34,803 nucleotides of DNA from a phage (GCA_021149145.1 GCA_021149145.1_4322.1), one strand, 5' to 3'. Shown: positions 7,330 through 34,166, counted from the first letter of the stretch. Translations and numbers: made by a program. The notes: a model not told the origin generated them from the sequence alone.

Positions 7330-7374
7330 CTATAAGCCACCCTTGGCGGCGCGTCTTTAGCAAAACGTGCTATT
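7330..7374 (-). promoter_or_regulatory. Motif-type promoter for the moron ORF
   Basis: Minus strand AATAGCACGTTTTGCTAAA, 22-23 nt, TTATAG/TATAGT, leader ...CGCAAACGAGAGGAG; the element's TAG is the large terminase stop codon. Confidence 0.4.
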
Positions 7375-8989
7375 TGATGCCAGCGAGGCGCATCATCCTC
7401 GATTTAGGGTCTTCTGCAATGTTCAGTACCAGGTTGACAGCCATTGTCAAACAGTCTATCTGGTCATCGTGAACATGTGAATCATCTGCCGTGAATGCCG
7501 CAATCTCCGTTAGCAAGCCATTAAGCCAAGTAGCAGACTCCGGAAGGATTACGTTACCAGCTTTAATCTGCGGCAATGCACTCATTACGCGAGTCAGCTT
7601 ATCGTTATCCGGAACGTACGGCTCGATAGGCGTTCGCATAACCCTTCCGGCTGATTGAATCAGGCCAATACCAGAGGCTTTCTTCTCGATGATGATTTTA
7701 CGAAGGATGCCATCTATCTGATTGGATGCCCTAGCCATCTTCTCGAAATCCAATAACTCAGCCTCGAGCTCAGGAGCTTCAAATTTACCGCGCCGCTGGT
7801 CAAGAAGATAAATCTTCCCATCCTTATAACCCCATAGCTGCATGACGCTAAAGTCGCTGTAACTTTTGGTTGTCATCGCAGTATCAAGGACCATAAACCT
7901 GTAATCGTACTTAGCTGGCGGTCGCAGAGTGTCGCTAATGCGTTGAAGCCAGTCTACGTTAATCAGGTTGCCGCCAAGTGCTACTGGTTCTTGCTGATAC
8001 TGGCTAAGGAATGTATAGCTATCAGAATCCCACATTGCAACCAGGTCGTGAACAGACTCCTTGCCAGGGAAATAGCTATAGTACCTAACACCATCACGCT
8101 CAATATATTCGCTTGATAGAACGTCATCAATGAATTGCTGCTTAATCCAGTCAGGAAGCGTGTCGACGTAATCCTCAGTTACGAGCGCCGGTATCTTAAT
8201 CAAGTCGAAGCTAATACCCATACCGCCATTCATCATGAACCACGTACTATCGTTCACATGAAGGCGCTGTTGGATAGAGATAATCGGCGTCGCCTTTCCT
8301 TTTACGGAGCTCGCCCTACGAGAGCGTATTGTATTCTTTAGCATCATGTGATTGTTAGCGCGAAAAACAGCAGAAAGCATGTCGGCTGGTTTGTCAAAAT
8401 CATCTAACAGTACCGCACCACTATACGAATCGGTTATATATCCACCCCTCGCGCCTGTAATTTGGCCGCCAGTGGCTTTAGAGATTGACTCAAACCTGAC
8501 CTTGCCATAGTCATCCAGGACCTGTAGCTCATCATCCTTACACGTACCAAACTTACATGGGAACAACTCCTGGAACTCAACAGACTTAATTAAGTCGCGC
8601 ACACGCTTGGAGTTACGCTTAACCAGTGAGTCAGCATACGATATATTCAGGTTCCTTACCTTTCTCAACTTAACCATTGAGTAGGCTGGGAAGTGAATTG
8701 AGGCAATCTCTGTTTTTCCGCTACCAGGTGCTATGTTGATGATGGTATCTTTACGCTCACCCGCAATAATCTCATCAATGATTCTGCAAAGGTATTTATG
8801 ATGCCAGTTTGGGATGTACCGCTCTCCCTGAGTTATCTGGAACCACACTCGCAAGAATCCCTCGAAGCTATGAGTGGATATCGCCTTAACCGCCATCTTT
8901 TCTGCTGGCGTCATTTCCTCCCAAACTAAATTAGCCATAATTTCACCAATCCAACCATCACGCCAATTAAGAATCCAGTTGTGAAGCAT
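7370..8989 (-). CDS. Terminase large subunit
   Basis: 539 aa; Walker A-like NIAPGSGKTEI near N-terminus; C-terminal nuclease-like region (RFMVLDTAMTT...); follows small subunit. Confidence 0.85.
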   Translation of the reverse strand: MLHNWILNWRDGWIGEIMANLVWEEMTPAEKMAVKAISTHSFEGFLRVWFQITQGERYIPNWHHKYLCRIIDEIIAGERKDTIINIAPGSGKTEIASIHFPAYSMVKLRKVRNLNISYADSLVKRNSKRVRDLIKSVEFQELFPCKFGTCKDDELQVLDDYGKVRFESISKATGGQITGARGGYITDSYSGAVLLDDFDKPADMLSAVFRANNHMMLKNTIRSRRASSVKGKATPIISIQQRLHVNDSTWFMMNGGMGISFDLIKIPALVTEDYVDTLPDWIKQQFIDDVLSSEYIERDGVRYYSYFPGKESVHDLVAMWDSDSYTFLSQYQQEPVALGGNLINVDWLQRISDTLRPPAKYDYRFMVLDTAMTTKSYSDFSVMQLWGYKDGKIYLLDQRRGKFEAPELEAELLDFEKMARASNQIDGILRKIIIEKKASGIGLIQSAGRVMRTPIEPYVPDNDKLTRVMSALPQIKAGNVILPESATWLNGLLTEIAAFTADDSHVHDDQIDCLTMAVNLVLNIAEDPKSRMMRLAGIK

Positions 8990-9056
8990 GTAGCTGCTAT
9001 CATGTAATACGCCAATAATGCCTTAATCAATTATATCATACCAACCCGCCATGTTC

Positions 9057-9581
9057 TTACAGTTTGCTAATCACAGACTCCAGGGCTTCCTTCATCGTTT
9101 CGACGTCGTTAGCAGAAGAGTTATTGCTTATAGTGATCTCCTGCGGTTTGTCGATTCCAAGCTCCTTGGAAATCATGCCAGGGTTAACAATGCCAGATGC
9201 TGCAAGCTGGTATTTCTGCTCGCGAATCACGGAATCAATGAATGCAATCACCTCATCATAACCAGCCGACTTCCTCCATTTCTCGATGGCGCCATGGGTG
9301 ACACCGCAGTAAAGGCAGAATCCGGTTAGCGTGAAGACTCTTGGTTTGTGCACCAGGCTCTCTTTTACCACACCCTGGAAGCTGGCTGTCTCGATTGCAT
9401 TGATTGCCTGGTCCTCAGCCCATGAGAAGTATTTCACGGCGAATTCAAATAGCTGTTCGGGTGTCATGCTTCTGTTTTTGGCTAGCGTTGTAATGTCTGA
9501 GTACTTTTTATTGTACATGGCTTTAAAGTTGCCAGAGCGGACCTTTTCTTGCGCCTGACTGGTGAAGTTTTCGTCTTTCAT
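9057..9581 (-). CDS. Terminase small subunit
   Basis: 174 aa immediately upstream of large terminase; AAAGGAGG RBS; TGATATAAT extended -10 upstream. Confidence 0.65.
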   Translation of the reverse strand: MKDENFTSQAQEKVRSGNFKAMYNKKYSDITTLAKNRSMTPEQLFEFAVKYFSWAEDQAINAIETASFQGVVKESLVHKPRVFTLTGFCLYCGVTHGAIEKWRKSAGYDEVIAFIDSVIREQKYQLAASGIVNPGMISKELGIDKPQEITISNNSSANDVETMKEALESVISKL

Positions 9582-9608
9582 TTTGTTACCTCCTTTGTTT
9601 AGAGATGC

Positions 9609-9617
9609 ATTATATCA
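9609..9617 (-). promoter_or_regulatory. Extended -10 element (TGnTATAAT) upstream of terminase small subunit
   Basis: Minus-strand TGATATAAT ~25 nt upstream of the ATG, directly after a terminator hairpin. Confidence 0.4.
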
Positions 9618-9628
9618 TATAGCAAACG

Positions 9629-9651
9629 AAAAAAGCCCTCAAGAATAGGGC
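9629..9651 (-). terminator. Rho-independent terminator upstream of terminase promoter
   Basis: GCCCT-(7-nt loop)-AGGGC with A6 on plus strand. Confidence 0.55.
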
Positions 9652-9704
9652 GAAGTATCGAACAACAACGAGAGATATGAAACAAACAGAGAGTAGAACT
9701 TCTT

Positions 9705-9893
9705 TTACTTTCGCTCACGAACGTAAGCTACTAGGAATTTGTGGTAATCCGGGTCGGCACCGGACATTACCTTAACTTTCGCTACTGCTACCTCTGAGGA
9801 CTTAGCAGTAACCGACGCGATAAATTCTTGAGTGCAACTTTTGCAACTACGACCCATTAATCGGATTGAAAGCTTAACATCCCAGAGCTGCAT
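9705..9893 (-). CDS. Hypothetical protein (62 aa)
   Basis: ORF followed by terminator 9629-9651. Confidence 0.4.
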   Translation of the reverse strand: MQLWDVKLSIRLMGRSCKSCTQEFIASVTAKSSEVAVAKVKVMSGADPDYHKFLVAYVRERK

Positions 9894-10086: not shown

Positions 10087-10117
10087 TTAATCCCCCAGGA
10101 TTATTGGTTTCTTAATT

Positions 10118-10789: not shown

Positions 10790-10793
10790 TAAC

Positions 10794-10910
10794 CTAATTC
10801 AATGTAAATATGAAGAAAATCATCCCAATTGCCGTAGCTATAGCCAATCCGATGGCGATCAGAGTTAGTACTAAATCAATGATAATATCACTCATAAAGG
10901 CTATTCCCAT
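10794..10910 (-). CDS. Possible small membrane protein (38 aa)
   Basis: Hand-translated: MGIAFMSDIIIDLVLTLIAIGLAIATAIGMIFFIFTLN; shares its first 8 codons with the downstream gene via the 29-bp repeat. Confidence 0.3.
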   Translation of the reverse strand: MGIAFMSDIIIDLVLTLIAIGLAIATAIGMIFFIFTLN

Positions 10911-10914
10911 TCTC
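10886..10914. repeat. 29-bp perfect direct repeat, copy 2
   Basis: Identical to 10761-10789; here it also encodes the C-terminus ...ENGNSLYE of the 78-aa ORF in another frame. Confidence 0.85.
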
Positions 10915-11124
10915 ATCATGACCCACACGCCCTCGACGATAGCCCGCTATCCACACAAACTTATCACGTGCGATTATCGTGGATACCGGCCCCCATATCT
11001 GAGTGATAAGCGCCGCAACAACCTTATCATCTTTCTTTTTTGCGCCCAATTTGCCGTATTCGTCATTCAGCTTGTCAGCCTGTCGCTTAACTGCGTTAAA
11101 GTATGCGTCGTCTAACCCGAACAT
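10888..11124 (-). CDS. Hypothetical protein (78 aa)
   Basis: ORF; motif-type promoter upstream (11154-11198). Confidence 0.45.
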   Translation of the reverse strand: MFGLDDAYFNAVKRQADKLNDEYGKLGAKKKDDKVVAALITQIWGPVSTIIARDKFVWIAGYRRGRVGHDENGNSLYE

Positions 11125-11153
11125 TTTCTAACCTCTCGCTGTTTGATATATAA

Positions 11154-11198
11154 ATTATATGGCATACATGCCTTTGGTGTTTAGCTATTCGTGCTGTT
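11154..11198 (-). promoter_or_regulatory. Motif-type promoter (19-bp upstream element + TATAAT)
   Basis: Minus strand ACAGCACGAATAGCTAAAC, 22 nt spacer, TATAAT, ~30 nt before the ATG at 11124. Confidence 0.45.
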
Positions 11199-12498: not shown

Positions 12499-12543
12499 AT
12501 TATGCCATCCTTGGCGTCATATCGTTAGGCAAAAAGTGCCATT
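12499..12543 (-). promoter_or_regulatory. Motif-type promoter (variant element + CATAAT)
   Basis: Minus strand AATGGCACTTTTTGCCTAA, 22 nt, CATAAT. Confidence 0.4.
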
Positions 12544-13764: not shown

Positions 13765-13809
13765 AATAGCACTTTTTGCTAAAGACATTTAGGTATTGCG
13801 GAGTTATGG
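13765..13809 (+). promoter_or_regulatory. Motif-type element (weak -10) upstream of the plus-strand island
   Basis: AATAGCACTTTTTGCTAAA followed 22 nt later by TTATGG, a poor hexamer. Confidence 0.3.
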
Positions 13810-13837
13810 TTCACTCATCAACAACGAGGAGAGAGAT

Positions 13838-14431: not shown

Positions 14432-14595
14432 TGCTTTTACCATCTGAGATAAACTATTTCGATCTGGAAATTATTAGTGCTTACAGCGGAAAGGGTTGGC
14501 CTTGCGGGGGCTGGTTTAACGAGGACCTGCTTGAGTCTCACGAGATTATGTTGAAGGCAATTGAGAAGGCCAGAAGAAATAGCACTAATTGCTAA
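14431..14595 (+). CDS. Hypothetical small protein (54 aa)
   Basis: Start overlaps upstream stop (TAATG); C-terminus ...RRNSTNC encoded by the promoter element. Confidence 0.4.
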   Translation: MLLPSEINYFDLEIISAYSGKGWPCGGWFNEDLLESHEIMLKAIEKARRNSTNC

Positions 14596-14622
14596 AACTC
14601 ACCGCCACGGATGGCGTATATT
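14578..14622 (+). promoter_or_regulatory. Motif-type promoter (element + TATATT)
   Basis: AATAGCACTAATTGCTAAA, 22 nt, TATATT, then conserved leader CCATCGAAACGAAAGAGAG before the ATG at 14655. Confidence 0.45.
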
Positions 14623-14816: not shown

Positions 14817-15205
14817 TGACTACTACGATAACCAAAAATTTCATTAGCAACGACAACAAGCTATTTAAAGCTCGCGTTAAAAAGATTCACCAGTGGGTTA
14901 ACGGTGTCGCTGAGGAAGTTGAATTTGAGCAAATCAAAAAAGACGGCAAATGGATCAACCTGGAAGAACGTGGAAAATACATTAAAACCAAAACTCTTTA
15001 CTGCACAAAGGTTAACCATAAGTCTGGCGTTAAGAAAGACTTCAAAGAAGGTAAGCGATACCAGGTCAACATGCATAGCGGACTTTGTCAGTCAACTGGA
15101 TACATTTACGATGAAGATGGCAACGCCTGGCAGCTATATCGCAGCGAAGATGTTGGCTTTTATACGTTGTGTGAAACTTACCACTTTGAGGCTCAATACA
15201 AATGA
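14816..15205 (+). CDS. Hypothetical protein (129 aa)
   Basis: Lys-rich ORF; start overlaps upstream stop. Confidence 0.5.
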   Translation: MTTTITKNFISNDNKLFKARVKKIHQWVNGVAEEVEFEQIKKDGKWINLEERGKYIKTKTLYCTKVNHKSGVKKDFKEGKRYQVNMHSGLCQSTGYIYDEDGNAWQLYRSEDVGFYTLCETYHFEAQYK

Positions 15206-15372
15206 AATTATACATTGTAAGTGGTTGCACACACTATGATGGAAGCGAAGTGATTGCCGCTTTCGATGAAGAATTCAAAGCACAGGAGTTTAAATATAAC
15301 AAAGAAATATCTTCAGAAAATCACTTTGACTACTACAAGATAGATTGCATCTTACTAAATAGCACTAATTGA
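15202..15372 (+). CDS. Hypothetical small protein (56 aa)
   Basis: Hand-translated MKLYIVSGCTHYDGSEVIAAF...; ends ...LLNSTN via the promoter element. Confidence 0.4.
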   Translation: MKLYIVSGCTHYDGSEVIAAFDEEFKAQEFKYNKEISSENHFDYYKIDCILLNSTN

Positions 15373-15402
15373 TAATGCATTATAAGCGGCTATTGATATA
15401 AT
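15358..15402 (+). promoter_or_regulatory. Motif-type promoter (element + TATAAT) with inverted repeat bracketing the -10
   Basis: AATAGCACTAATTGATAAT, 22 nt, TATAAT; AGCGGC (15385-15390) and GCCGCT (15404-15409) flank the hexamer. Confidence 0.45.
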
Positions 15403-15431: not shown

Positions 15432-17015
15432 ATGTTTGATTTCAACGAAGATAAACTATCTGTTGAGCAGGTTATGGCAATCGCTGCCAATGACAACCTA
15501 CCACCGCTTCGCGTGGCTATTAATGCCAATGGCTATCGACAGTCTCAATCGTTCTGGAAAGCACCTGTCGAGATTGATACAGGTAATGATAAGTATCCAG
15601 TAATCTCACTCGGTAATGATATTGATGTTGTTGGTAAGCTATCGGCTAATATCGCTCGCTCGGTTCAGTTCCCTGAGTCGTCAGCTTACATGCACTTTCT
15701 TGGTTGTGTTTCTGCTGCAATGCTTGGGCGTTTTACTGTCGAGTATCATGGAACCCAACAGCCAACATCTTTGTACGTGGTAACAAGTCAGCCGCCTTCA
15801 ACTGGTAAATCAGCCATTAACTCGCTATCAATTGCGCCGATGATTGCTGAGACTGCGCGGTTGAATGAAGTACGTAAACGTGATCGAAAAAAGATTATGG
15901 CTAAACTGTCCGCTCTGGCTAAAGAGATGAAGCAGGAAAAATCACCTTCTGAAATGGCTTCACTTTTTGAGGAGAAGGAGGATTTAGAGGAGAAGCTCGA
16001 GAAGCTATGCGATATAGTATTCCCTGTCTCCGATACTACTCCGGAAGGTCTTGCGCGAATCAACAATCGCCAGGGTAGTTTTGCGGTAATCTCTGATGAG
16101 GCTACTAGCGTCAACTCACTGTTAGGCATGACTTACGGTGATGGCTCGAAGAAAACGAACAGCGAGCTCGTGCTGAAAGCATGGGATGCAGGTAATGTGT
16201 CAATTGCCCGTGCGAACGCAGAAAATAACATGAGCTTTGTGGCTATGGGATGCATCTCCGTAATTGCTCAGGATGAAACAATCAATGCCATTATGAATGC
16301 TGGTGCGCGTGGTATTGGTGTATCTGAGCGTTTCCTTCTGGTGCGTGAAAAATCATTTCTTGGCGACCGTGTATTTGTTGATGAAAATGGTGATTCAACC
16401 TATGAGGCTATTGATGGCGGCCTGAAAGCAGACTATTTCCGTCTTGTTCATGAGATTATGAATGAAGTTGAAGTGAAACTTACTGTAAGCGCGTCATCAA
16501 TGCGTTACCTTAACCGCGCTCGTCAAGAGATGGAGCCTCATCTTGGTGATGGTGGCAAGTATTCTCACACAATGTTGCGCGGTGCTCTTGGTAAGTTTGA
16601 TAAGCAAGCAATCCGCATCGCTTCTGTTCTGCACGTAATTCGTAACTGGTTCTCACCAGCCGGATCCAGCCCTCAAAAGTCAAGAGAGATTGAACTGGAT
16701 ACAATGCAGGAAGCGATTATGATTTTCAACGAACTAAGCAAGACTTATTTATCATCCGCTAGTGCTGCTGGTCATGCTGGTGACAATGCCGAGATGAACA
16801 AGCTGGTTGATATCCTGATTAAGCAGGGCAAGAATGGTAAAGGTGTTGTTGGTGTTCGCTCGTTGTATGAGGCTGCACGCAAGGTTAAACCTTTTGAAGG
16901 TCAGGCTGGAATTATGACTCGCATTAAGGACCACTTGATTCCTATGCTTGATGAGAAAAACTACACATGCCTGATTGGTGATAAAATTTACATTAATCCA
17001 CGATTGCTGGGGTAA
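15432..17015 (+). CDS. Hypothetical P-loop ATPase (Walker A and B), 527 aa
   Basis: GGAGAGAAG RBS; Walker A-like QPPSTGKSAIN and Walker B-like FAVISDEATS about 100 aa later; largest gene of the island. Family not assignable by eye. Confidence 0.55.
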   Translation: MFDFNEDKLSVEQVMAIAANDNLPPLRVAINANGYRQSQSFWKAPVEIDTGNDKYPVISLGNDIDVVGKLSANIARSVQFPESSAYMHFLGCVSAAMLGRFTVEYHGTQQPTSLYVVTSQPPSTGKSAINSLSIAPMIAETARLNEVRKRDRKKIMAKLSALAKEMKQEKSPSEMASLFEEKEDLEEKLEKLCDIVFPVSDTTPEGLARINNRQGSFAVISDEATSVNSLLGMTYGDGSKKTNSELVLKAWDAGNVSIARANAENNMSFVAMGCISVIAQDETINAIMNAGARGIGVSERFLLVREKSFLGDRVFVDENGDSTYEAIDGGLKADYFRLVHEIMNEVEVKLTVSASSMRYLNRARQEMEPHLGDGGKYSHTMLRGALGKFDKQAIRIASVLHVIRNWFSPAGSSPQKSREIELDTMQEAIMIFNELSKTYLSSASAAGHAGDNAEMNKLVDILIKQGKNGKGVVGVRSLYEAARKVKPFEGQAGIMTRIKDHLIPMLDEKNYTCLIGDKIYINPRLLG

Positions 17016-17018: not shown

Positions 17019-17360
17019 ATGTACCTGCTCGACCTGTATAATTTCTGCGAAGGATACAAGAACTTCAACCGCCAGCACCTGGCAAGATTCATCTATAAGC
17101 ACAAGGATTGCGCAAGGATGGCCAAGGCTGCCGGGGTTGATGAAAGGTATTTTGCCTCAAGTTGCTCGAAGGAGTTTATAGCGAGAATGCTTACGGCTGG
17201 GTATCTTGATGGGGTTAATGGAGTGTACTGGTGTAAGGGTTCAATTAAGCGACCATTTCAGTTTGAATTCATGAGCCTTGAAGGTAGGTCCAGTGATTAC
17301 GTCAGTGAGATGATGAACATAGCCAACATGAGTGATGACGAATTGTTTGCACAAAAATAG
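17019..17360 (+). CDS. Hypothetical protein (113 aa)
   Basis: ORF starting 4 nt after the ATPase stop; followed by terminator. Confidence 0.45.
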   Translation: MYLLDLYNFCEGYKNFNRQHLARFIYKHKDCARMAKAAGVDERYFASSCSKEFIARMLTAGYLDGVNGVYWCKGSIKRPFQFEFMSLEGRSSDYVSEMMNIANMSDDELFAQK

Positions 17361-18781: not shown

Positions 18782-18826
18782 ATTATGCCGCATCTCTACG
18801 GCGATTGTTTAGCAATTCGTGCTATT
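18782..18826 (-). promoter_or_regulatory. Motif-type promoter (element + CATAAT)
   Basis: Minus strand AATAGCACGAATTGCTAAA, 22 nt, CATAAT, leader ...CATCGAAAACAACAGAGGG; element overlaps the kinase stop codon. Confidence 0.45.
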
Positions 18827-19363
18827 GATCACATCAATTACTATTTCTGTGGTTCTTTTAATATCACCTTCAATAACATCAATATCAATCTCCCTGGCGC
18901 AGACACCACTAAGATACGACCTACTATCTCCTTCGAAAGTGTATCCATGTCGATGAAGTCTAATTAATGTAACTTCAACACCTTCATCAATTAGTGGCTT
19001 AATCTCACTCGCGAACCCACCATCAGAACAAATGTAGCATCCATCACCAAGTGATTGCGCGAGCCTTTTACCAAAAACATCATCGCCAAAAACTGGCTTC
19101 ATCACTGATTCGCTAATCCAAATCATAAATTCACGAACAGTCATTCCACCAAGAAATTCGTGTGGTGATTCTTTGTACCCTCGGTCATCGTAATTATTAA
19201 TAAATCCATCAAACTCATCGCTTGATAGTATTCCTTTTGCAACATTAAACATTGGTGACTTGAATGAAACCTTATCCTTGCAAATTCCAAGATTAACAAT
19301 GATATCTGCAACTGTATCTTTTCCAGCACCAGGGGGTGCATTAATGATGATTAACTTTTTCAT
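18809..19363 (-). CDS. P-loop nucleotide kinase (dNMP-kinase-like)
   Basis: Track ORF 18809..19411; probable start MKKLIIINAPPGAGKDTVADIIV, which resembles the T4 gp1 dNMP kinase N-terminus as I recall it; AT-rich codons. Confidence 0.5.
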   Translation of the reverse strand: MKKLIIINAPPGAGKDTVADIIVNLGICKDKVSFKSPMFNVAKGILSSDEFDGFINNYDDRGYKESPHEFLGGMTVREFMIWISESVMKPVFGDDVFGKRLAQSLGDGCYICSDGGFASEIKPLIDEGVEVTLIRLHRHGYTFEGDSRSYLSGVCAREIDIDVIEGDIKRTTEIVIDVINSTNC

Positions 19364-19364
19364 T

Positions 19365-19827
19365 TTATTCTCTGTGAGATTCGCAGTCTTTTGGTAATTC
19401 TTTATATTCACAAACTGACATTACAGTATATCCGCAATTCCTTAGGTGACTGATAACATTAGGATTATCCTCAAAGATTATCACACTTGCTTTGTCACCA
19501 TTACACAAATCATTTAGCCACATCTCTTTAATGATATAGTCATTTCTGTTATCCAATCTACTCCTCATATATATTCCATCATAATTAATATTATTATACT
19601 GAAGCCATTCAAGCGTCATACATTCGACTTCGTCACTTCTTGAAGTCATGATGTAAACTGGCGATAACTCAGCTAACGCATTCATCATGTATTATAGGTG
19701 AATCTCCAGAACAGGCTCTATTGTAATCACCCCAACTTGAAGTCAAGTGAAGGTCACTAGATGGTAAGAGGTAGCTTCTATGTTCATTGTTAGCAATAGT
19801 TCCATCAATATCAAACACGTAAATCAT
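19365..19827 (-). pseudogene. HAD-family phosphatase split by a 1-nt frameshift
   Basis: GAGGAG RBS then ATG at 19827; MIYVFDIDGTIAN (HAD motif I) runs 52 codons to a TGA at 19669-19671; motif II-like IMTSRS and ...VIIFEDNPNV continue in another frame (19365..19688). Confidence 0.5.
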
Positions 19828-19902
19828 TACAACTCCTCATCTCGTTATCGTTTATTCATTTTGCCTCAATCCTTTGAGGCTTTATTAACAAAAAAGTGCT
19901 AC

Positions 19903-21036
19903 TTAGAACATCTCAGGGCGACAAATAAATCGACCAACCTCACCAAAACGCTTATGGTAAACGATTACCGCTGCTTGACGCATTGAGCGCCATCCTCCAT
20001 TAGCTGAGTAGGCATCTGGCGCGCCAAGCTGACCATGAACTTCATCGATACCCAGGTTTGTTTCTGTAATTTTCTGACTATGCCAGTGGCCCGAGTGTGT
20101 ATAGACATATTTGCTGTTACCGAATAGTTTACGAAAGTCTGTAGCCATTACTGTAAGTCGAGTTTCAGCTTTTCGCATCTGGTGACCATGAGTATAACCA
20201 ATCAATGTTGAGCCGAAGCTTGTCATCAGCATTGCTGCTGGGCTTACGTCGACAGTAACTCGCTCCTCGTCTTCATAGAATGCCGCCAATGCTGCACGCA
20301 ACCAAACCATCCCAGCTTCGTCGTGATTTCCACTTATTACTTTAATATCAATGATTTGGTGCTTCTCAAGCATCCTTGAAACCGCACGACGCACTGAGCG
20401 GATTGCTACGTAAACCAATTTAGCATAGCGACTGTCGCTGTCTAAGATATGTCCTGATGCTGGTGTTTTAGCCTCTAGAGAGTCGTAATGCAGAAAATCA
20501 CCCCCCAAAACTAATGTCGCATTTCTTGATTTAGGAGCCTTATCTACAGCATAATCAAAGAAGCCATTCATTACCTTCTCTGCTGTTGCAGTGTCGTAGT
20601 TTTCACCGCACTCATGCTTATGAGCCATTGCGCCAATGTGAAGGTCGAAAACAGGATACATAGCCATAGTGTCATCGTCAAAATCAATGTCTGGGCACTC
20701 GCTGGCAATTGCCTTTGGTAAATCAGAACAGAAGGCTTCACGCGCTTGCTCAAGCAGAATCTCAAGGCGTTCATTATCAACGCTTGTCTTAACCCACCGG
20801 ATTTTCTCATTCCCTTCCGCATCAATCATGGTAGAAGTGCCTTTTACCATGTATCCATCTGGCACTAGCTTCTTGATACCTTCATTACCATGCCCAACAC
20901 CACTCTTGGCTAACTTGCTGCGACGAAGCTCAACGTTGCGAATGTTCATGCCGTACTTCTCTGCAATTGCCTTGTTAGTCAGGCCATTCTTCAATTCTTC
21001 AGTTAACTGTTCATTTGTAATCTTTGCTACTGCCAT
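19903..21036 (-). CDS. Metallophosphoesterase (calcineurin-like) with N-terminal HTH-like region
   Basis: GDFLHYD, GNHDE and HGH motifs typical of calcineurin-like phosphoesterases; N-terminal LTNKAIAEKYGMNIRNVELRR resembles an HTH. Confidence 0.65.
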   Translation of the reverse strand: MAVAKITNEQLTEELKNGLTNKAIAEKYGMNIRNVELRRSKLAKSGVGHGNEGIKKLVPDGYMVKGTSTMIDAEGNEKIRWVKTSVDNERLEILLEQAREAFCSDLPKAIASECPDIDFDDDTMAMYPVFDLHIGAMAHKHECGENYDTATAEKVMNGFFDYAVDKAPKSRNATLVLGGDFLHYDSLEAKTPASGHILDSDSRYAKLVYVAIRSVRRAVSRMLEKHQIIDIKVISGNHDEAGMVWLRAALAAFYEDEERVTVDVSPAAMLMTSFGSTLIGYTHGHQMRKAETRLTVMATDFRKLFGNSKYVYTHSGHWHSQKITETNLGIDEVHGQLGAPDAYSANGGWRSMRQAAVIVYHKRFGEVGRFICRPEMF

Positions 21037-22362: not shown

Positions 22363-22407
22363 ATAATACACCAACTCACCAGTTCGTCTTTGGAAATTCG
22401 TGCTATT
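22363..22407 (-). promoter_or_regulatory. Motif-type promoter (element + TATTAT)
   Basis: Minus strand AATAGCACGAATTTCCAAA, 22 nt, TATTAT, leader ...CTCATCGAAACGAAACACAC; the element's TAG is the VRR-NUC stop codon. Confidence 0.45.
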
Positions 22408-22823: not shown

Positions 22824-24533
22824 TCAATCCTCCATCGTAAATGATTTGTTGGCGATAATATCTTGAGACTTCTGGTTTTTACGGTGTGTGATTCTCAATG
22901 GGGCACGGAATAGATGTGCATTTGTCATAATCATTCTAGCATTACGCAATCTGCCAATTCTGAATGCCTCATTCCTGTTATCGATGTGTGTTGAGCAGAA
23001 AGCCTTCCATTTAACAGAGCAAACGCGATGGTCTGATTCAGGGAAGAATGTTTCATAAGCTCGGAATCTGTCACCACTGTGAGCCATAACCTCATATGAA
23101 GCAATAATCCCTGACTGGTTCTTTGTTAACCCAATCTTGAAGTCATAAACTCGCAACCAGTCCCCCTTACGATACATTTTTCCTGATAACTTAGCATTCG
23201 GGTCTATGAGCATCTCACCACAGCATCTGCAATTCTTAGCTGCAATATCATTCTTCTCACCGCATCCTTTCTTGATGATAGCTTTGGTCTGTGGGTCCGC
23301 CATATCTTCACACAGTATAAACTGAAAGAAGTGCTCGCAACGCTTACCGTCAATTACATTATTACAACGCCGTGCGAACGGAGAGTTCTCATAAGAACAT
23401 GCCGGGCATACCCTAGGTTCATCACCTCCTTTCCTTGATGACTTAAACTTCTGGTCCTGAACTTCTTCTATAATTGGGTCAAAGTAAAGCTCTGCCATAT
23501 CGTCAAGCGTTCCGGCGAAATCGAGAACAACATGGTCTTCTTTTACCATCCCTGAATCCTTGTGTTTTTTCTTAAGAATTCGCATACCACGACCAAGCAA
23601 CTGAATGAGTAGAGTAATGCTACCAACCTTCCTCAGGATAATGCTTGTATCCCACGGGGGGCAGTTTACGCCAGTTGTGAGGCAACCAATCTGAAATATG
23701 AACTTATATTCTCCGTTGGCTGCCTTCTCAAGTATCTCTCTACGCTTCTTCTCACCAGTGGAGTTGGTAACTATCGCCCAAGTAACACCTTCTGGAAGTG
23801 CGGCTGCCGCCTCCTCGCAATGCCGTTTGCCAGCGCAAGTTACCAATGCAGCATTCCTTGTTTCCATAAACTTAGCAGCAAATCTCATTATCTTTTGTGT
23901 CATCGTTTGGTTTTCGTGAATCTTTGCAGCCATCGCATCCATTTCTTTCTTGCTGAAGTCCTTAACCCCATCACTTCCATCAGGAGTGAACTCACTAAGG
24001 TCGTAGCCCAAATCACCAACTTCACCGTAGACAGTAGGAACAACGAACCCCAAGTCAACAAGGTAGCTGGTTGGCACTTGCATTACAGTTTTGCGCCAGA
24101 ATCCACGGACATTTGGGTTACTAACTACAATGTGGTCGTTGTTACGGTACGGGCTACCAGTTAACCCAAAGATACGAAGTTCGCGACCGTACTTCTCCCT
24201 GCATCGACGCTTCATTTCGGTAATGATTAACGTGTATTGCGCGCGACCAGTGCCAAGAAGCCCGGTATTCACACCATCCTTAAAGACCATCTCACCATTC
24301 TTCGTGCTCATCTGCTCGAATGTTTCCTCATTCTCTTCAGCTTCTACGATATCCATATGGTCCACCATGTGGCAATTATGTGCCACGACCCCGTCAGCAA
24401 TGAAATTATGGTGCTCAGGCATCTCTATATCCCAAACAAGTTCCTTGCCAATTGGTGAGATGTCTTTAATTTTGCTTGATTTTGTATTCCACGCCATTTT
24501 CCATGTGCTTACTAATTCTCTTAAAAAACTCAT
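22824..24533 (-). CDS. Helicase, C-terminal part: 53-aa intein C-terminal segment (blocks F/G) fused to C-extein
   Basis: Starts with ATG right after an in-frame stop; ...ELVWDIEMPEHHNFIADGVVAHN|CHMVDHMD...; C-extein carries helicase motif VI-like QLLGRGMR and a C-terminal Cys cluster. Confidence 0.7.
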   Translation of the reverse strand: MSFLRELVSTWKMAWNTKSSKIKDISPIGKELVWDIEMPEHHNFIADGVVAHNCHMVDHMDIVEAEENEETFEQMSTKNGEMVFKDGVNTGLLGTGRAQYTLIITEMKRRCREKYGRELRIFGLTGSPYRNNDHIVVSNPNVRGFWRKTVMQVPTSYLVDLGFVVPTVYGEVGDLGYDLSEFTPDGSDGVKDFSKKEMDAMAAKIHENQTMTQKIMRFAAKFMETRNAALVTCAGKRHCEEAAAALPEGVTWAIVTNSTGEKKRREILEKAANGEYKFIFQIGCLTTGVNCPPWDTSIILRKVGSITLLIQLLGRGMRILKKKHKDSGMVKEDHVVLDFAGTLDDMAELYFDPIIEEVQDQKFKSSRKGGDEPRVCPACSYENSPFARRCNNVIDGKRCEHFFQFILCEDMADPQTKAIIKKGCGEKNDIAAKNCRCCGEMLIDPNAKLSGKMYRKGDWLRVYDFKIGLTKNQSGIIASYEVMAHSGDRFRAYETFFPESDHRVCSVKWKAFCSTHIDNRNEAFRIGRLRNARMIMTNAHLFRAPLRITHRKNQKSQDIIANKSFTMED

Positions 24534-25514
24534 CTTGTGCCGACCTCGTTGTTATTGATACTGAGTAAAGCTCTCTCTTTTTCTTGCCGCCAATATAGCT
24601 TCTAACCTTAACTCCGTCATTAGCAATAAATGCTATTAGCGCATCAACTACTGATTGAACTTCACTCCTGCTAAATGATTCGGTGTGGATTTCTACAACC
24701 CTCTTCCCTGAGCTTACAGTGCAATGACCATCATCACCAAAGTAAGCAGCCCAACCAACTGGATCAAGCTCTCTGCATATCTTTCCAATATCGTAACCAT
24801 CCTTAGAATTTCCGTACTTATCAGCATATGAATCCAGAACTTTCGTACATGATGTTGATACGCAAAACCAGTTGTCGCCAAATCCAGGGTTTTTCTTCTC
24901 CCTGTATCTAGGGTTTAGTTTTGCAAACCTTTCAACCTTGCTTAGTGCGTGCTCCTTATTTCCAATATTCCAAGATAGCCTATGCGTTCCTTTTTCTGTA
25001 TTTTTAATCAAGCAACCATCACCAGCCATTGCCGCAAGAATGTTTTGATGTAAAAAGTCATCAACCTCCATTGATGGGTTGACGGTTGAATTATGATGCC
25101 CCGTTCTGTAATCCAAATAGAAATCGAAAGGGTTCTTAAGAAGTACGCCTAACCCCTTGCTTGAATGCGGCATAACTTTTTCACCACAGCCACACTTGCA
25201 CGCAGGAGCTTTTTCGTAAATTTGTCCTGCGAGCCGTCTAGCGACAGATTCATCCCAATACGAAGTTTTCCCGCTCCTACCCAGCAGCCGTTCGAATAAA
25301 GTTTGTGTGTACTCGTGCATTTTATTTCCTCTCCGCTTTCTAATTTAATTGATGATACATGTCTTACACCATTAGTAAAAACTCTTTTTGGCTTATGATA
25401 GAAGTAATCACCAGTGCTTTCGTTTATGCATTTTATTTTATGATTGATAAGGTCTTCGCTATCAATCCTCATCATCCCTGAATCGGTGGTTATCATCGTG
25501 TCTCCAGTTAAGCA
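24375..25514 (-). mobile_element. Intein (1140 nt, 380 codons) in helicase motif II, with LAGLIDADG endonuclease encoded in a shifted frame
   Basis: Block A CLTGDTMITT directly after ...VIAIDE; block B KCTSTHKLY; blocks F/G VWDIEMPEHHNFIADGVVAHN then C; joined exteins read DE-CH. The two splicing domains share one frame; the endonuclease ORF is in another. Confidence 0.75.
24466..25320 (-). CDS. LAGLIDADG homing endonuclease (intein-internal or free-standing)
   Basis: 284-codon ORF with its own ATG, two LAGLIDADG-like motifs (ILAAMAGDGCL, AAYFGDDGHC); overlaps the flanking ORFs by 172 and 68 nt. Confidence 0.65.
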   Translation of the reverse strand: MHEYTQTLFERLLGRSGKTSYWDESVARRLAGQIYEKAPACKCGCGEKVMPHSSKGLGVLLKNPFDFYLDYRTGHHNSTVNPSMEVDDFLHQNILAAMAGDGCLIKNTEKGTHRLSWNIGNKEHALSKVERFAKLNPRYREKKNPGFGDNWFCVSTSCTKVLDSYADKYGNSKDGYDIGKICRELDPVGWAAYFGDDGHCTVSSGKRVVEIHTESFSRSEVQSVVDALIAFIANDGVKVRSYIGGKKKRELYSVSITTRSAQDEFFKRISKHMENGVEYKIKQN

Positions 25515-25958
25515 CTCATCTATCGCGATAACAGCAGGAGCATAGTCACCAAGCCCCTTAAACAAGCCGTTAGCAGCCGTTCCCTCACTAGCCACTATGG
25601 TTGGATAGTAAACTGATTTAACGTTAAGGCCAGCGCAATAGACGCTATTACGGATGCCGAAATTACGAAGTTCCTCTGCGTTCTGGCTGACAATCTCTGA
25701 CTGGCGAGATAGGACCATGTAAGGAAGGCCAAGCTGTTCCATTCGTTTCCCAATCATGGCGAGAATAATCGTCTTGCCAGCCGAAACCGATAGGTCTGCT
25801 ATGAATGGCGCTTCGTACTTGCCAATAGCCTTTCCGATTGCGTCAAATGTCACGCACTGGAATGGGTATGGTGTGATTTCTCCGAACTGATAATCATTTT
25901 GAATCTGCTTGATTTTATCTTGGTCAAAGTTTGCTACTAAGCGTTCTACTGGAAGCAT
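25149..25958 (-). CDS. Helicase, N-terminal part: N-extein (148 aa, Walker A SVSAGKT, Walker B IAIDE) fused to 121-aa intein N-terminal segment
   Basis: ORF ends at TAG after intein blocks A and B; same frame as the C-terminal helicase ORF. Confidence 0.7.
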   Translation of the reverse strand: MLPVERLVANFDQDKIKQIQNDYQFGEITPYPFQCVTFDAIGKAIGKYEAPFIADLSVSAGKTIILAMIGKRMEQLGLPYMVLSRQSEIVSQNAEELRNFGIRNSVYCAGLNVKSVYYPTIVASEGTAANGLFKGLGDYAPAVIAIDECLTGDTMITTDSGMMRIDSEDLINHKIKCINESTGDYFYHKPKRVFTNGVRHVSSIKLESGEEIKCTSTHKLYSNGCWVGAGKLRIGMNLSLDGSQDKFTKKLLRASVAVVKKLCRIQARG

Positions 25959-25999
25959 TTTAAATATCCTGATAGTTCTTTAGTTCGTTGCATTGATGT

Positions 26000-26043
26000 A
26001 TAATAACAGCCATAGAACCCATTGTTTAACAAAAAGTGCTATT
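26000..26043 (-). promoter_or_regulatory. Motif-type promoter (variant element + TATTAT) upstream of helicase
   Basis: Minus strand AATAGCACTTTTTGTTAAA, 21 nt, TATTAT, ~40 nt before the helicase ATG at 25958; divergent from the HTH gene. Confidence 0.4.
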
Positions 26044-26054
26044 GAGGTAATGAG

Positions 26055-26528
26055 ATGTGTAAAATTGACAAGCGAACTATTAACGGCAATAACGGGACCG
26101 TCCGCACGCAAGACAAGAAGCAACGCAAGCGACCTTCAGGCTACTACGTATTGAAAGATGAAGTAAAGGCTGGTCTACGCGCGCGTCTGGAAATGATTCT
26201 TGATTTCTACGGCACGAAAGCCAATATCGCCAAGCAGTTAAATGTATCTCACCAGACTGTAGAGCAATGGTTTAATCGCGGGATGATTTCGGCTCGAGGG
26301 GCTCAGAGAGCGCATAATGCGTACAAGCGAAATAAGGAAGGGTTCCGAGCTACATTCTGCCGACCAGACCTGCAATTCGACGGTAACGGAAAGCCGCTAA
26401 CACTTCGATGCAAGAAACGCCATATGCTTCGCGTAGTTACCGAGGCAGAACTAGCAATAAAACCACCCTGTCGACCGTGGCGCAAGAATAAGATTGCTAA
26501 CGAAGCAGCACGAAAAGCTAAAGGGTAA
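26055..26528 (+). CDS. Putative HTH DNA-binding protein (157 aa)
   Basis: Basic N-terminus; HTH-like segment TKANIAKQLNVSHQTVEQWFNRGMIS; first rightward gene from a divergent region. Confidence 0.45.
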   Translation: MCKIDKRTINGNNGTVRTQDKKQRKRPSGYYVLKDEVKAGLRARLEMILDFYGTKANIAKQLNVSHQTVEQWFNRGMISARGAQRAHNAYKRNKEGFRATFCRPDLQFDGNGKPLTLRCKKRHMLRVVTEAELAIKPPCRPWRKNKIANEAARKAKG

Positions 26529-26579
26529 GTGATTGGATGTGCCATAATAGGCACATCCTTTTTTATTGGAGAGAAGAAA

Positions 26580-28000: not shown

Positions 28001-28064
28001 TTGCCTGAAAGATGGTAGAATGAATTTTGGCAATTAGTGCTACTTTACAAATGGAGACTTTACA

Positions 28065-30548: not shown

Positions 30549-30977
<429 letters not shown>

Positions 30978-31017
30978 TTTATTTCTCTCTTAATGCTGTG
31001 GCCGAAGCCCCGTTAAA

Positions 31018-31668: not shown

Positions 31669-31698
31669 TCCCCATCTCTCTTTCGTTTCGATGGGGTA

Positions 31699-31743
31699 AT
31701 GATACCCCACCTGTTAATTTTGTCTTTAGCAATTAGTGCTATT
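31699..31743 (-). promoter_or_regulatory. Motif-type promoter (element + TATCAT)
   Basis: Minus strand AATAGCACTAATTGCTAAA, 22 nt, TATCAT, leader ...CCCATCGAAACGAAAGAGAG; the element's TAG is the exonuclease stop codon. Confidence 0.45.
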
Positions 31744-32710: not shown

Positions 32711-32713
32711 GGC

Positions 32714-32908: not shown

Positions 32909-33071
32909 TTCTCTATCTCTCTATTGTTGCGTGCTTTCGATTAGTTAATGATGCCGTACGCACAACGCATAGTCCAATTGGTATCACCTATTAATTAATC
33001 AAGTATACGCGTATAATTTTGTAACTACGTGTAGACATTGGCATGAGTTACGTTTTTAGCCACTTAAGCCA

Positions 33072-33081
33072 AGCTATAGCT
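33072..33081. repeat. Palindrome AGCTATAGCT (paralog of 13287-13300)
   Basis: Read directly. Confidence 0.7.
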
Positions 33082-33235
33082 CAATGTAAATAGTGAGTAT
33101 ACCGTGTATACCGATTTTAGCGGAGGGTGCATAGGTATAGGTGCTGCGCAATACTGTATAAAATCACATGGTATAAAAATTATAAGCGGAACACTCAAGA
33201 ACAGTAGTTACATGATATACAAGATATACATATAT

Positions 33236-33320
33236 AATAATAATAATAAGAGTAAAAGGTTGATATATATAGATATTATAATGTAACTATGGCGTAAACT
33301 GGCGTAACTGGGCGTATACG
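33236..33320. repeat. AT-rich control element, copy B, with three GGCGTA repeats at exact 10-bp spacing
   Basis: (AAT)4-5 + identical 29-mer (33251-33279) + GGCGTAAACT / GGCGTAACTG / GGCGTATACG at 33291, 33301, 33311. Confidence 0.75.
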
Positions 33321-33373
33321 ATTTCCAGCGGATGCATATGGTATACATGGAGTTACATTGGTTACGCGTAAAC

Positions 33374-33417
33374 AATAGCACGAATAGCTAAAACTAATAC
33401 GCAAAACCCTGTATAGT
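33374..33417 (+). promoter_or_regulatory. Motif-type promoter (element + TATAGT)
   Basis: AATAGCACGAATAGCTAAA, 21 nt, TATAGT, leader ...AAACGAGAGAGG before the ATG at 33450. Confidence 0.45.
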
Positions 33418-33449
33418 TGGTCACACAAAAAACGAGAGAGGATTTCAAA

Positions 33450-34139
33450 ATGGTTATTTGGTCTTTATTTGATGGTTCAGGGCTGGCTGTGAAAGATTGG
33501 GCTGAGGCTTGTCACGAGTGCTACTGTTTCAACTTTGATGAGTCTGACCACGGTAGTTACGGGGATTTAAATGCAAAATTTGAACATGAGAACATCACCT
33601 ACGTTAATGCCTGGATAGATGGCAACTTCGACTTTGATGTGAAGCCTGATATCATTTTAGCGTTCCCGCCGTGTACGGATTTAGCCGTGAGCGGGTCAAG
33701 GCACTTTGAGCGAAAGCGACTGGTTAACCATAACTTCCAGATTGAAGCTGCGGAAACATGTAAAGTTGCTTTTAACTTGGCTAATAAGTACGAAGTCCCA
33801 TACATGATTGAGAATCCAATCAGCGTACTGTCATCACTCTGGAGAAAGCCTAATAAGACTTTCCACCCATATGAATACGGAGGCTATTTGCCGGAAGATG
33901 ATTTACACCCGTTTTTTAGCGACCTAATAAAGCCAAAAGACGCATATCCCAAGAAGACATGCATTTGGTATGGCAATGGGTTTAAATGGCCAGAGGCGAT
34001 TCCTGTGGACGTTAACGATGGATTCTCTGACCAATACAAGAAGCTTGGTGGGAAGAGTAAGAAGACAAAGGTAATTCGCAGTCTAACTCCTCGCGGTTTT
34101 GCAAAAGCAGTCTTCATAGCAAATAGCACGAATAGATAA
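33450..34139 (+). CDS. SAM-dependent DNA methyltransferase-like protein (about 229 aa; specificity uncertain)
   Basis: Track ORF 33417 (TTG); better ATG at 33450 with GAGAGAGG RBS; FDGSG (FxGxG-like), FPPC and ENP segments; size matches the small T1 Dam class as I recall it; ends ...ANSTNR via the promoter element. Confidence 0.5.
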   Translation: MVIWSLFDGSGLAVKDWAEACHECYCFNFDESDHGSYGDLNAKFEHENITYVNAWIDGNFDFDVKPDIILAFPPCTDLAVSGSRHFERKRLVNHNFQIEAAETCKVAFNLANKYEVPYMIENPISVLSSLWRKPNKTFHPYEYGGYLPEDDLHPFFSDLIKPKDAYPKKTCIWYGNGFKWPEAIPVDVNDGFSDQYKKLGGKSKKTKVIRSLTPRGFAKAVFIANSTNR

Positions 34140-34166
34140 AGACAAATCCCAAGGATGAGATATCAT
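34122..34166 (+). promoter_or_regulatory. Motif-type promoter (element + TATCAT)
   Basis: AATAGCACGAATAGATAAA, 22 nt, TATCAT, leader ...CCATTGAAACGAAACACAC, AAGGAA RBS, ATG at 34208. Confidence 0.45.

Follow-up and report, generated by a model that had tools for sequence, protein, structure and literature searches.

The middle and late promoters of phage Mu, served by Mor and C, have an activator site reaching from about −51 to −33; their −10 is good and a −35 is missing. The Mor and C sites are dyads bound by phage-encoded dimers. The stoperators of mycobacteriophage L5 are asymmetric repressor sites found across transcribed regions of a temperate phage and not tied to a −10, and the T4-type PeSL ('promoter early stem-loop') elements are ordinary sigma-70 early promoters that include a −35. 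On the host side, the antibiotic-, oxidative- and bile-stress activators Rob, MarA, SoxS and RamA recognise the marbox, classically written as the 20-mer AYnGCACnnWnnRYYAAAYn and also published as the non-palindromic consensus 5'-GCAnnWWnTGnnAAA-3'. Class II promoters carry a forward marbox overlapping the −35, its centre at micF being placed at −41.5 or about −41. Rob, which is constitutive, abundant and of the highest affinity in the family, has been described as keeping sigma region 4 off the −35 by occlusion.

A 21-nt direct repeat, aaATAGCACnnnTTGnTAAAA, has already been published for phages TLS, T1, Rtp and Rogue1 (PMC11447400). Its function was listed as an open question in 2024, with a stoperator, an enhancer or an UP element under consideration, and only three canonical sigma-70 promoters were found by the TLS authors (PMC11447400).

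In this study we examined a window of 34,803 nucleotides from a T1-like coliphage (Drexlerviridae), in which a first-pass annotation had noticed a conserved 19-bp element upstream of −10-like hexamers. The TLS repeat is the same element by its consensus, its intergenic place, its agreement with the direction of transcription and its position about 76 nt before start codons, and it was described without a link to the marbox and without a fixed distance to a −10 (PMC11447400). No paper linking the phage repeat to the marbox was found in the literature. The repeat itself is already published; its marbox identity and class II geometry were missed by the first-pass annotation. We propose, with a probability of about 0.68, that the cassettes formed by this element and its −10 are sigma-70 promoters of the class II MarA/SoxS/Rob (marbox) type, and that most promoters of this phage probably run on a host activator instead of one of its own. 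The observed basis of this proposal comprises the sequence match, the orientation, the spacing, the absence of a −35, the enrichment, the conservation in the family and the absence of an AraC-like phage protein.

Results

Occurrence of the element in the window and in related phages

Searching the window for AATAGCACNNNNTGCTAAA with up to three mismatches returned 17 matches, against 1.8 expected (maximum of 6 in 100 dinucleotide shuffles). All 12 sites of the first-pass annotation are present with their positions and strands; the window also holds two further canonical copies absent from its list (marked as extra below) and three non-canonical copies. The canonical cassettes are as follows.

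7329–7374, minus strand: element (putative marbox) 7356–7374 (AATAGCACGTTTTGCTAAA); spacer hairpin, flagged terminator-like; −10 TATAGT 7329–7334; ahead of ORF 6947–7300 and the portal and head genes; TAG of the element ends the large terminase gene
11154–11198, minus strand: element 11180–11198; −10 TATAAT 11154–11159; upstream of ORF 10888–11124
12499–12543, minus strand: weaker element 12525–12543 (AATGGCACTTTTTGCCTAA); −10 CATAAT 12499–12504
13765–13810, plus strand: element 13765–13783; −10 TATGGT 13805–13810; 21-nt gap
14578–14622, plus strand: element 14578–14596; spacer hairpin CGCCACGGATGGCG; −10 TATATT 14617–14622; leader CCATCGAAACGAAAGAGAG
15358–15402, plus strand: element 15358–15376; inverted repeat GCGGC..GCCGC around −10 TATAAT 15397–15402; putative promoter of the DUF3987 ATPase gene 15432–17015
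18782–18826, minus strand: element 18808–18826; spacer hairpin; −10 CATAAT 18782–18787; TAA of the element ends ORF 18809–19411
22363–22407, minus strand: element 22389–22407; inverted repeat TGAGTTG..CAACTCA around −10 TATTAT 22363–22368; TAG of the element ends the VRR-NUC gene
24592–24637, minus strand (extra): element 24619–24637 (AATAGCATTTATTGCTAAT); −10 TATATT 24592–24597; within an intein/LAGLIDADG remnant, ahead of the C-terminal helicase ORF starting at 24533
26000–26043, minus strand: element 26025–26043; −10 TATTAT 26000–26005; 19-nt gap; candidate promoter of the helicase gene; bases 26000–26005 are TATAAT on the plus strand, toward the HTH gene
26504–26548, plus strand (extra): element 26504–26522 (17.5 bits); −10 CATAAT 26543–26548, in the loop of the terminator hairpin 26535–26558 that ends the HTH gene; then a Shine-Dalgarno sequence and ATG
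31699–31743, minus strand: element 31725–31743; palindrome GGGGTA-TCAT-TACCCC over −10 TATCAT 31699–31704; putative promoter of the Erf-like recombinase gene; TAG of the element ends the exonuclease gene
33374–33417, plus strand: element 33374–33392; −10 TATAGT 33412–33417; 19-nt gap; upstream of ORF 33417–34139
34122–34166, plus strand: element 34122–34140; −10 TATCAT 34161–34166; upstream of ORF 34208–34438

The non-canonical copies are the following.

28026–28044, minus strand: 24.5 bits; flanked by the primase and tail-fibre genes, opposite to both; no −10 at 20 nt, running into a terminator hairpin; same place kept in T1, Rtp and AN_ECEAS
19885–19903, minus strand: 14.6 bits, degenerate; ahead of the polynucleotide kinase/phosphatase gene; one extra T relative to AN_ECEAS, with a wider gap between the GCAC and AAA half-sites
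21151–21169, plus strand: 20.7 bits; inside and antisense to ORF 21118–21369; probably non-functional, since both a −10 and a gene downstream are lacking

A matrix derived from the 12 sites of the first-pass annotation was applied, at a threshold of at least 16 bits, to the window and six relatives (AN_ECEAS, T1, Rtp, TLS, Klebsiella TSK1 and Pantoea AAS23); it found 129 sites against 1.4 in shuffles. The same element is present in nine related genomes at about 15–26 copies per genome. Two points here count against the marbox reading: recombination may have spread the cassettes, so that the phage sites are not independent samples, and several conserved copies, backward or without a −10, fit neither class I nor class II.

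Promoter anatomy and gene boundaries

The last A of the 19-mer is separated from the first base of the −10 by 20 nt in 94 of the 129 sites, by 19 nt in eight and by 21 nt in ten. The spacing of 21–22 nt originally given has to be revised to 20 nt (19–21), the annotated spans of 44–45 nt themselves corresponding to 19 + 19/20 + 6. The −10 hexamers are near consensus (TATAGT, TATTAT, CATAAT, TATAAT and similar), and a subclass of sites has TGn ahead of them. At 17-bp spacing the sites match TTGACA at 1.55 of 6 positions on average, and the window shows no enrichment of canonical −35/−10 promoters (43 against 44.3 expected), in agreement with the earlier observation that a TTGACA-like −35 is missing. 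Having a good −10 but lacking a −35, these promoters should need an activator, which supports the activator dependence already suggested.

Downstream of the hexamer, the consensus tacc.CATcgAAA bears out the conserved leader described before; CAT begins 5 nt past the hexamer in 49 of the 110 canonical sites, which places its A at the usual +1. Of the 129 sites, 114 are followed in the same orientation by a Shine-Dalgarno sequence, a start codon and an ORF, against 26 in the opposite one, so that the element does follow the orientation of the genes, as had been claimed, and the start codon lies a median of 58 nt past it.

The proposal that the element supplies the stop codon of the upstream gene also held: at 89 of the 129 sites, an open frame of 45 codons or more that lies upstream ends in or at the element; TAG occupies positions 3–5 in 46 sites and TAA positions 16–18 in 16. 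Most spacers form a hairpin, which lies around or ahead of the −10. Homology-block ends fall within cassettes in 20 of 66 cases, against 6.1 expected, consistent with the idea that the element marks cassette boundaries.

Correspondence with the host marbox

Exact matches to GCAnnWWnTGnnAAA account for 91 of the 129 phage sites, 35 more differ by one mismatch, and each phage genome holds 12–20 exact matches compared with about 0.5 in shuffles. Even the degenerate positions agree, 10–11 being A/T only (W) and 15 being C/T (Y). When compared with the classical 20-mer, 15 sites show no mismatch and 82 a single one, mostly at position 20, where the expected Y is mostly A in the phages, a difference that counts against the marbox reading.

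A matrix built from phage sites only was used as a cross-check on E. coli. At marRAB its top match was the marbox itself (17.1 bits, backward; next best 6.1), at micF it was the class II site (forward, 20 nt from TAGAAT, centre about −41), and at fumC and zwf it was the known marboxes, both forward; inaA gave no match with this matrix, which counts against the marbox reading. The prevailing phage gap of 20 nt is thus the gap at micF and implies an element centre near −41.5 if transcription starts about 7 nt past the −10. The phage sites therefore display, at the level of sequence, the asymmetric consensus, the forward orientation and the −10 without a recognisable −35 of class II marbox promoters; in those of Salmonella, too, a −35 cannot be recognised, the matches averaging 1.9 (1.55 in the phage sites).

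Alternative readers and functions of the element

A phage-encoded activator, whether the HTH protein put forward by the first-pass annotation or another phage protein of the Mor/C kind, is an unlikely reader. The former, a Cro-like protein of the T1 gp23/Rtp52 family (26055–26528, plus strand), might bind TAGCA-N5-TGCTA as a dimer; its gene is found in 825 phage records, essentially all from T1-like phages, lies beside one copy of the element and possesses a TATAAT of its own, and the element contains a partial dyad. The same promoters also occur in records labelled Vibrio phage Vc1 and Pseudomonas phage Motto, which favours a reader carried by the phage; relatives labelled Campylobacter and P. 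syringae exist as well, and a MarA/Rob-type host factor becomes less likely if these host labels are correct. However, the recognition helix differs widely among the HTH homologues (VSHQTVEQW, VTRQAVEEW, VCCVRLTNAY) while the element is identical in their phages, and the structure model holds a single Cro-like HTH domain in place of a two-HTH fold, which leaves this protein without support as the factor. Nor does the element have the form of a dimer operator or of a dyad site of the Mor/C type, being oriented and asymmetric: G5 is invariant in 110 of 110 canonical sites, whereas position 15, the dyad mate of G5, has C in 70 sites and T in 31, and A-rich flanks lie on the same strand at both ends. 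The phage sites match the host marbox at each of its specified positions, all of which a phage protein would have to reproduce by convergence. A phmmer search with MarA and Rob against all six-frame ORFs of seven phage genomes revealed no AraC-type protein (best E-value 0.75), and the two phage DNA-binding candidates have a predicted Cro-like and a predicted winged-helix fold.

It seems improbable that no activator is involved and that RNA polymerase relies on a strong −10, the element acting as an UP-like or −35-substitute contact for alpha-CTD or sigma. The near-consensus hexamers, the TGn subclass and the 3' end of the element (TAAACA), which sometimes scores as a weak −35 at 17–18 bp, would fit such promoters, and an UP element was raised by the TLS authors (PMC11447400). 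UP elements, however, are A/T tracts between −38 and −59 with no conserved G/C, whereas the core of this element is an invariant GCAC plus TG (G5, C6, A7 and G14 being invariant or nearly so); the low number of matches at the −35 position also argues against a substitute −35, and the exact fit to a known activator site in class II position would be left unexplained. Very improbable, in our view, is a mainly negative or non-transcriptional role, whether as a block of the stoperator kind, as an insulator or as a joint at which gene cassettes are reshuffled by recombination. The excess of homology-block ends at cassettes, the presence of backward copies that lack a −10 next to late genes and terminators, and the mention of stoperators by the TLS authors (PMC11447400) speak for it, but 73% of copies stand at a fixed 20 nt from a −10, with leader, Shine-Dalgarno sequence and start codon beyond it, which is the anatomy of a promoter. 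This fixed distance and the virulent gene set of annotated relatives led us to reject an L5-type stoperator; the phage is virulent, with no repressor or integrase module seen. Intergenic breakpoints are expected in any case, and a role in recombination can coexist with promoter function.

Discussion

According to the class II marbox reading, half-sites A (GCAC) and B (TAAA) of the 19-mer, 7 bp apart, would be read by a monomeric two-HTH activator of the AraC family, with the element centred near −41.5 and covering the place of the absent −35. The protein bound would be Rob in unstressed cells, as the only family member present there, and MarA, SoxS, or RamA in Klebsiella, under stress; it would bend the DNA, contact alpha-CTD and sigma region 4 in lieu of a −35 and recruit RNA polymerase. 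The first transcribed base would be the conserved A in CCATCG, some 7 nt past the −10, giving a leader of about 25–30 nt with its Shine-Dalgarno sequence. The 20-bp spacer, presumably free of promoter constraints, could be used for the hairpin ahead of or around the −10, which probably ends or stabilises the upstream transcript, and each cassette would in consequence be terminator, promoter and gene boundary. The binding protein, the activation, the start sites and the role of the hairpin are the parts that we infer. Against a host activator count the low levels of MarA and SoxS in ordinary broth, where most Rob is reported to be sequestered, and the good growth of T1-like phages in such broth.

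More tentatively, at somewhat less than even odds, the virulent Drexlerviridae as a family may encode no activator of their own for most promoters, with about 20 near-consensus class II marboxes per genome wired to the host stress activators Rob, MarA, SoxS and RamA, and with cassettes doubling as terminators and module-exchange joints. If so, phage expression would rely on the host mar/sox/rob regulon and vary with its state: the phage would do poorly in a rob mutant or a triple mutant, and expression would be better in multidrug-resistant overproducers of MarA, RamA or SoxS and in cells exposed to bile, salicylate or redox drugs.

Among the known systems, the Mor and C promoters of Mu share with the phage cassettes the upstream site, the good −10 and the absence of a −35, but the site is asymmetric here and no matching phage protein was found. 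The T4-type PeSL is similar in placing a promoter and a stem-loop at gene-module boundaries, with mosaic junctions at the cassettes, whereas in the present cassettes a putative marbox replaces the −35. Class II MarA/SoxS/Rob/RamA promoters such as micF and fumC share the A site GCAC and the B site (C/T)AAA; unlike these degenerate and scattered host sites, the putative phage marboxes are near-consensus, number 15–26 per 45–50 kb and serve most transcription units, and they belong to a virulent phage, carry a hairpin in the spacer and overlap the stop codons of upstream genes.

Occurrence and placement of the repeated element

By megablast, the window belongs to a T1-like siphophage (Drexlerviridae, Braunvirinae), the closest record being Escherichia phage AN_ECEAS (94% identical across 68% of the first 25 kb), followed by Rtp-like and T1-like phages. 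A T1-like gene set fits the Pfam matches, which include a primase zinc ribbon, a DUF3987 ATPase, VRR-NUC and a helicase interrupted by intein/LAGLIDADG remnants. The helicase gene, which is split likewise in AN_ECEAS, is arranged as follows:

22824-25958, minus strand: T1 gp22-type helicase gene, in three overlapping ORFs
25149-25958, minus strand: N-terminal part of the helicase, with intein N-splicing motif
24466-25320, minus strand: LAGLIDADG endonuclease ORF within the split helicase
22824-24533, minus strand: C-terminal part of the helicase, with intein C-splicing motif and Helicase_C, and its own marbox promoter at 24592-24637

The 19-mer AATAGCACNNNNTGCTAAA occurs 17 times in the window with at most three mismatches, against 1.8 occurrences expected. 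All 12 sites listed in the first-pass annotation exist, and a matrix derived from them was used to scan the window, AN_ECEAS, T1, Rtp, TLS, Klebsiella phage TSK1 and Pantoea phage AAS23 at a threshold of at least 16 bits. The search across relatives proposed in that annotation recovered the same element in every related phage genome scanned, with 129 sites over the seven genomes against 1.4 in shuffled sequences; two further records, Vibrio phage Vc1 and Pseudomonas phage Motto by their labels, contained 15 and 22 sites, respectively. Of these sites, 110 were classed as canonical. The window holds these copies beyond the 12:

24592-24637, minus strand: canonical copy
26504-26548, plus strand: canonical copy
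starting at 28026, 21151 and 19885: three non-canonical copies

The gap between the last A of the element and the best -10 hexamer (TATAGT, TATTAT, CATAAT, TATATT, TATAAT and similar) was 20 nt in 94 of the 129 sites, 19 nt in 8 and 21 nt in 10, so that the spacing of 21-22 nt given previously was a miscount, its spans of 44-45 nt being composed of 19+19/20+6. The earlier claims that orientation follows that of the genes and that the element supplies upstream stop codons fared better. A Shine-Dalgarno sequence, a start codon and an ORF were found downstream in the same orientation at 114 of the 129 sites and in the opposite orientation at only 26, the median distance from element to start codon being 58 nt; the upstream open frame ended in or at the element in 89 of 129 cases, its stop codon being TAG (positions 3-5) or TAA (positions 16-18), which reflects tight packing. 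A CAT is conserved past the hexamer, its first base lying 5 nt beyond it in 49 of the 110 canonical sites, which places the A at the usual +1. An extended -10, considered as a general feature of these promoters, proved to be confined to a subclass and was dropped. When viral contigs were scanned for the element together with its -10, all but one of the matches listed lay on contigs 41-52 kb long, as expected of a T1-like genome, and the scan is therefore uninformative on other phage families.

Correspondence between the element and the marbox

In its sequence the element agrees with the marbox, an asymmetric site to which the Escherichia coli activators MarA, SoxS and Rob bind. Following the Grainger laboratory definition, the marbox is the non-palindromic 5'-GCAnnWWnTGnnAAA-3', which was matched exactly by 91 of the 129 phage sites and with one mismatch by 35 more, each phage genome containing 12-20 exact matches against approximately 0.5 by chance. 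The 110 canonical sites all have G5, C6 and A7. Only A or T occurs at positions 10-11, and position 15 has C in 70 sites and T in 31; the phage sites thus vary where the marbox is degenerate, and with the bases allowed there. As a cross-check, the phage-only matrix was run over E. coli K-12 regulatory regions, where its top match was the marRAB marbox GATGCCACGTTTTGCTAAA (17.1 bits, runner-up 6.1, backward). The same matrix found the micF site GACAGCACTGAATGTCAAA in forward orientation, 20 nt from TAGAAT and centred at about -41 from the annotated micF start, and forward sites upstream of fumC and of zwf were among its top matches; it gave no site in the region fetched for inaA.

The site of Lrp, YAGHAWATTWTDCTR, was considered as an alternative identity of the element. 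The two have the outer TAGCA/TGCTA in common, but the conserved C8 and the central bases misfit, and an Lrp site would leave both the orientation and the fixed -41.5 position without a reason; this identification was consequently rejected.

Promoter geometry and the protein reading the element

According to the published rule, class II promoters carry the marbox in forward orientation, overlapping the -35 region, its centre at micF lying at -41.5, or at about -41 for RamA. Such promoters lack a recognisable -35 (mean 1.9 matches), and in the cryo-EM complex Rob blocks sigma region 4 from the -35 while touching alpha-CTD. In the phage promoters a sigma-70 -10 follows the element after 20 nt, as at micF, and TTGACA is matched at 1.55 positions on average. 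The window shows no enrichment of canonical -35/-10 promoters (43 vs 44.3 expected). Taking motif and geometry together, we infer that the cassettes are probably class II marbox promoters served by an activator of the host MarA/SoxS/Rob family (we put this at about 0.68).

The first-pass annotation had proposed dependence on an activator, which appears right in outline, and had named the HTH protein encoded at 26055-26528 as a candidate, which fared poorly. This protein belongs to the T1 gp23/Rtp52 family, present in 825 phage records, and its AF2 model (pLDDT 87.6) shows one Cro-like HTH domain, extended at the C-terminus, for which the best PDB matches are the Cro proteins of Xfaso 1, N15 and P22; a MarA-like fold was accordingly discarded. 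Homologues of this protein, among them those from Vc1 and Motto, differ widely in the recognition helix, while the DNA element in these phages is identical. A 113-aa protein (17019-17360; T1 gp10/TLS gp70) was also rejected, being a winged helix with weak BlaI/MarR/GntR-type matches and no two-HTH fold. With MarA, Rob and the Rob N-domain as queries, phmmer --max recovered no AraC/MarA-like phage protein from the ORFs of 40 aa or more in all six frames of the seven genomes (best E-value 0.75), and no HTH_18/AraC match came from Pfam scans of 20 window proteins. Since the phages have no detectable AraC-type protein of their own and the other DNA-binding candidates are Cro-like or winged-helix, the most economical assumption is that a host activator reads the element. 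Rob has the highest affinity in its family and is both abundant and constitutive, yet largely aggregated under standard growth conditions.

The main arguments against a host activator are the non-enteric host labels of some relatives and the fact that T1 grows well in plain broth. Vc1 and Motto, labelled Vibrio and Pseudomonas, are T1-like, have about 45% G+C and carry the same motif and marbox promoters; T1-like records with Campylobacter and Pseudomonas syringae labels have been deposited too. Either these labels are wrong, the records being T1-like contaminants, or the promoters work without Rob/MarA. Because the labels are doubtful and the motif is the same in both, Vc1 and Motto were set aside as a means of separating a host from a phage factor. 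If the host reading is false, a phage factor's exact mimicry of a host site itself needs explaining.

Further observations concern individual promoters and the Cro-like protein. The major capsid gene (2168-3112, minus strand) is preceded by a strong terminator and, downstream of that, by a separate promoter of canonical appearance, TTGTAA-N16-TATAAT (3151-3178 and 3221-3245), with no marbox, so at least some late genes appear marbox-independent. The six base pairs at 26000-26005 read TATTAT on the minus strand, as the -10 of the helicase marbox promoter, and on the plus strand TATAAT, a perfect hexamer directed towards the Cro-like HTH gene; within 25990-26055 the marbox would fall in the 5' leader of the HTH gene, a layout also present in T1; the two divergent promoters should be mutually exclusive. 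The best-conserved parts of the Cro-like protein lie outside the HTH (alignment residues 1-45 and 96-119) and comprise a basic, low-confidence N-terminal segment with the conserved DKRTxNGNNGTxRxxDKKxRKRPxGYYVLKDEV and a C-terminal motif, FCRPDLxFDxNGKP..C, with two near-invariant cysteines.

Spacer hairpins

For each of the 110 canonical promoters a stretch of 37-39 nt was folded, beginning where the element ends and reaching 12 nt beyond the -10; the minimum free energy averaged -9.8 kcal/mol and the z-score relative to shuffles -2.5. The hairpin brackets the -10 in 73 promoters and lies wholly in the spacer in 21. Because the stems differ between promoters (GGGGTA/TACCCC, AAGGCCA/TGGCCTT, TGAGTTG/CAACTCA, GCGGC/GCCGC), it is the structure that is kept. 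Where the hairpin precedes the -10, the T-rich hexamer would act as the U tract. Terminators annotated in the T1 record coincide with these spacers (38973-39001, 39998-40024 and 41980-42007, adjoining sites at 38952, 39975 and 41955), and spacers at 7336-7350, 14603-14616 and 26535-26558 of the window were flagged in a terminator scan. A spacer that is neutral for the promoter may thus have been reused to end or protect the upstream transcript.

Atypical copies, mosaic boundaries and possible cassette decay

In several places a conserved copy of the marbox points backward and lacks a -10 at 20 nt; these copies adjoin terminators immediately ahead of late genes, namely those for tail fibre, major capsid and tail assembly chaperone, and match neither class I nor class II marbox positions:

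28026-28044 of the window, minus strand: backward copy
34901-34919, 15069-15087 and 18833-18851 of T1: backward copies
15025-15043 of TLS: backward copy
5952-5970 of a further relative (L006): backward copy
5713-5731 of Vc1: backward copy

Beyond the copy that precedes the capsid gene, T1 and TLS both have a hairpin with a -10-like loop. A forward marbox at 8361-8379 of T1 lies just 16 nt before the annotated terS start, too close to accommodate a -10 and a leader; either the start is misannotated or the site has a different function.

The suggestion that the element may mark cassette boundaries gained support from comparison of the window with AN_ECEAS, Rtp, T1 and TLS, in which 20 of 66 homology-block ends fell within cassettes (+/-40 nt) against 6.1 expected, some exactly at element edges (15357/15358, 33392, 34122/34123, 18826, 31744), junctions in intergenic DNA being expected anyway. 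The polynucleotide kinase/phosphatase gene (19360-19903, minus strand) has an 11-nt deletion relative to AN_ECEAS that shifts the frame (ORFs 19669-19827 and 19365-19688), and the marbox upstream of it contains an additional T between the half-sites, which represents either a decaying cassette or an assembly error. The gene following the 12525 promoter (12467, minus strand) starts with ATGAAAATTAAAATT in AN_ECEAS and reads ACGAAAATTAAAATT in the window, where the start codon is either lost or non-canonical.

Relation to known systems

A 2024 re-annotation of TLS described a 21-nt direct repeat, aaATAGCACnnnTTGnTAAAA, in 21 copies, 18 of them intergenic, which are oriented with transcription and lie about 76 nt ahead of start codons; it is likewise present in T1, Rtp and Rogue1 (PMC11447400). 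The repeat as such is therefore not new. Just three sigma-70-like intergenic promoters were identified in TLS, and its authors proposed that the repeats are stoperators, enhancer sites or UP elements, their function being a stated open question on T1-like phages (PMC11447400). We found no paper tying the marbox to a phage, or Drexlerviridae to Rob/MarA/SoxS, in a search whose coverage left out most subscription journals, so that prior notice is possible.

A host activator, if confirmed, would explain how T1-like phages, which have hardly any canonical promoters and encode neither a polymerase nor a sigma factor, are transcribed, and would constitute an unusual case of a virulent phage family reliant on a stress activator of its host. 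Phage growth would then be linked to the regulators driving multidrug resistance, with relevance to T1-like phage therapy of E. coli and Klebsiella and to its combination with antibiotics or bile exposure. The cassettes are best explained as an addition to a known promoter class, which offers a testable answer to the question openly stated for the TLS repeat.
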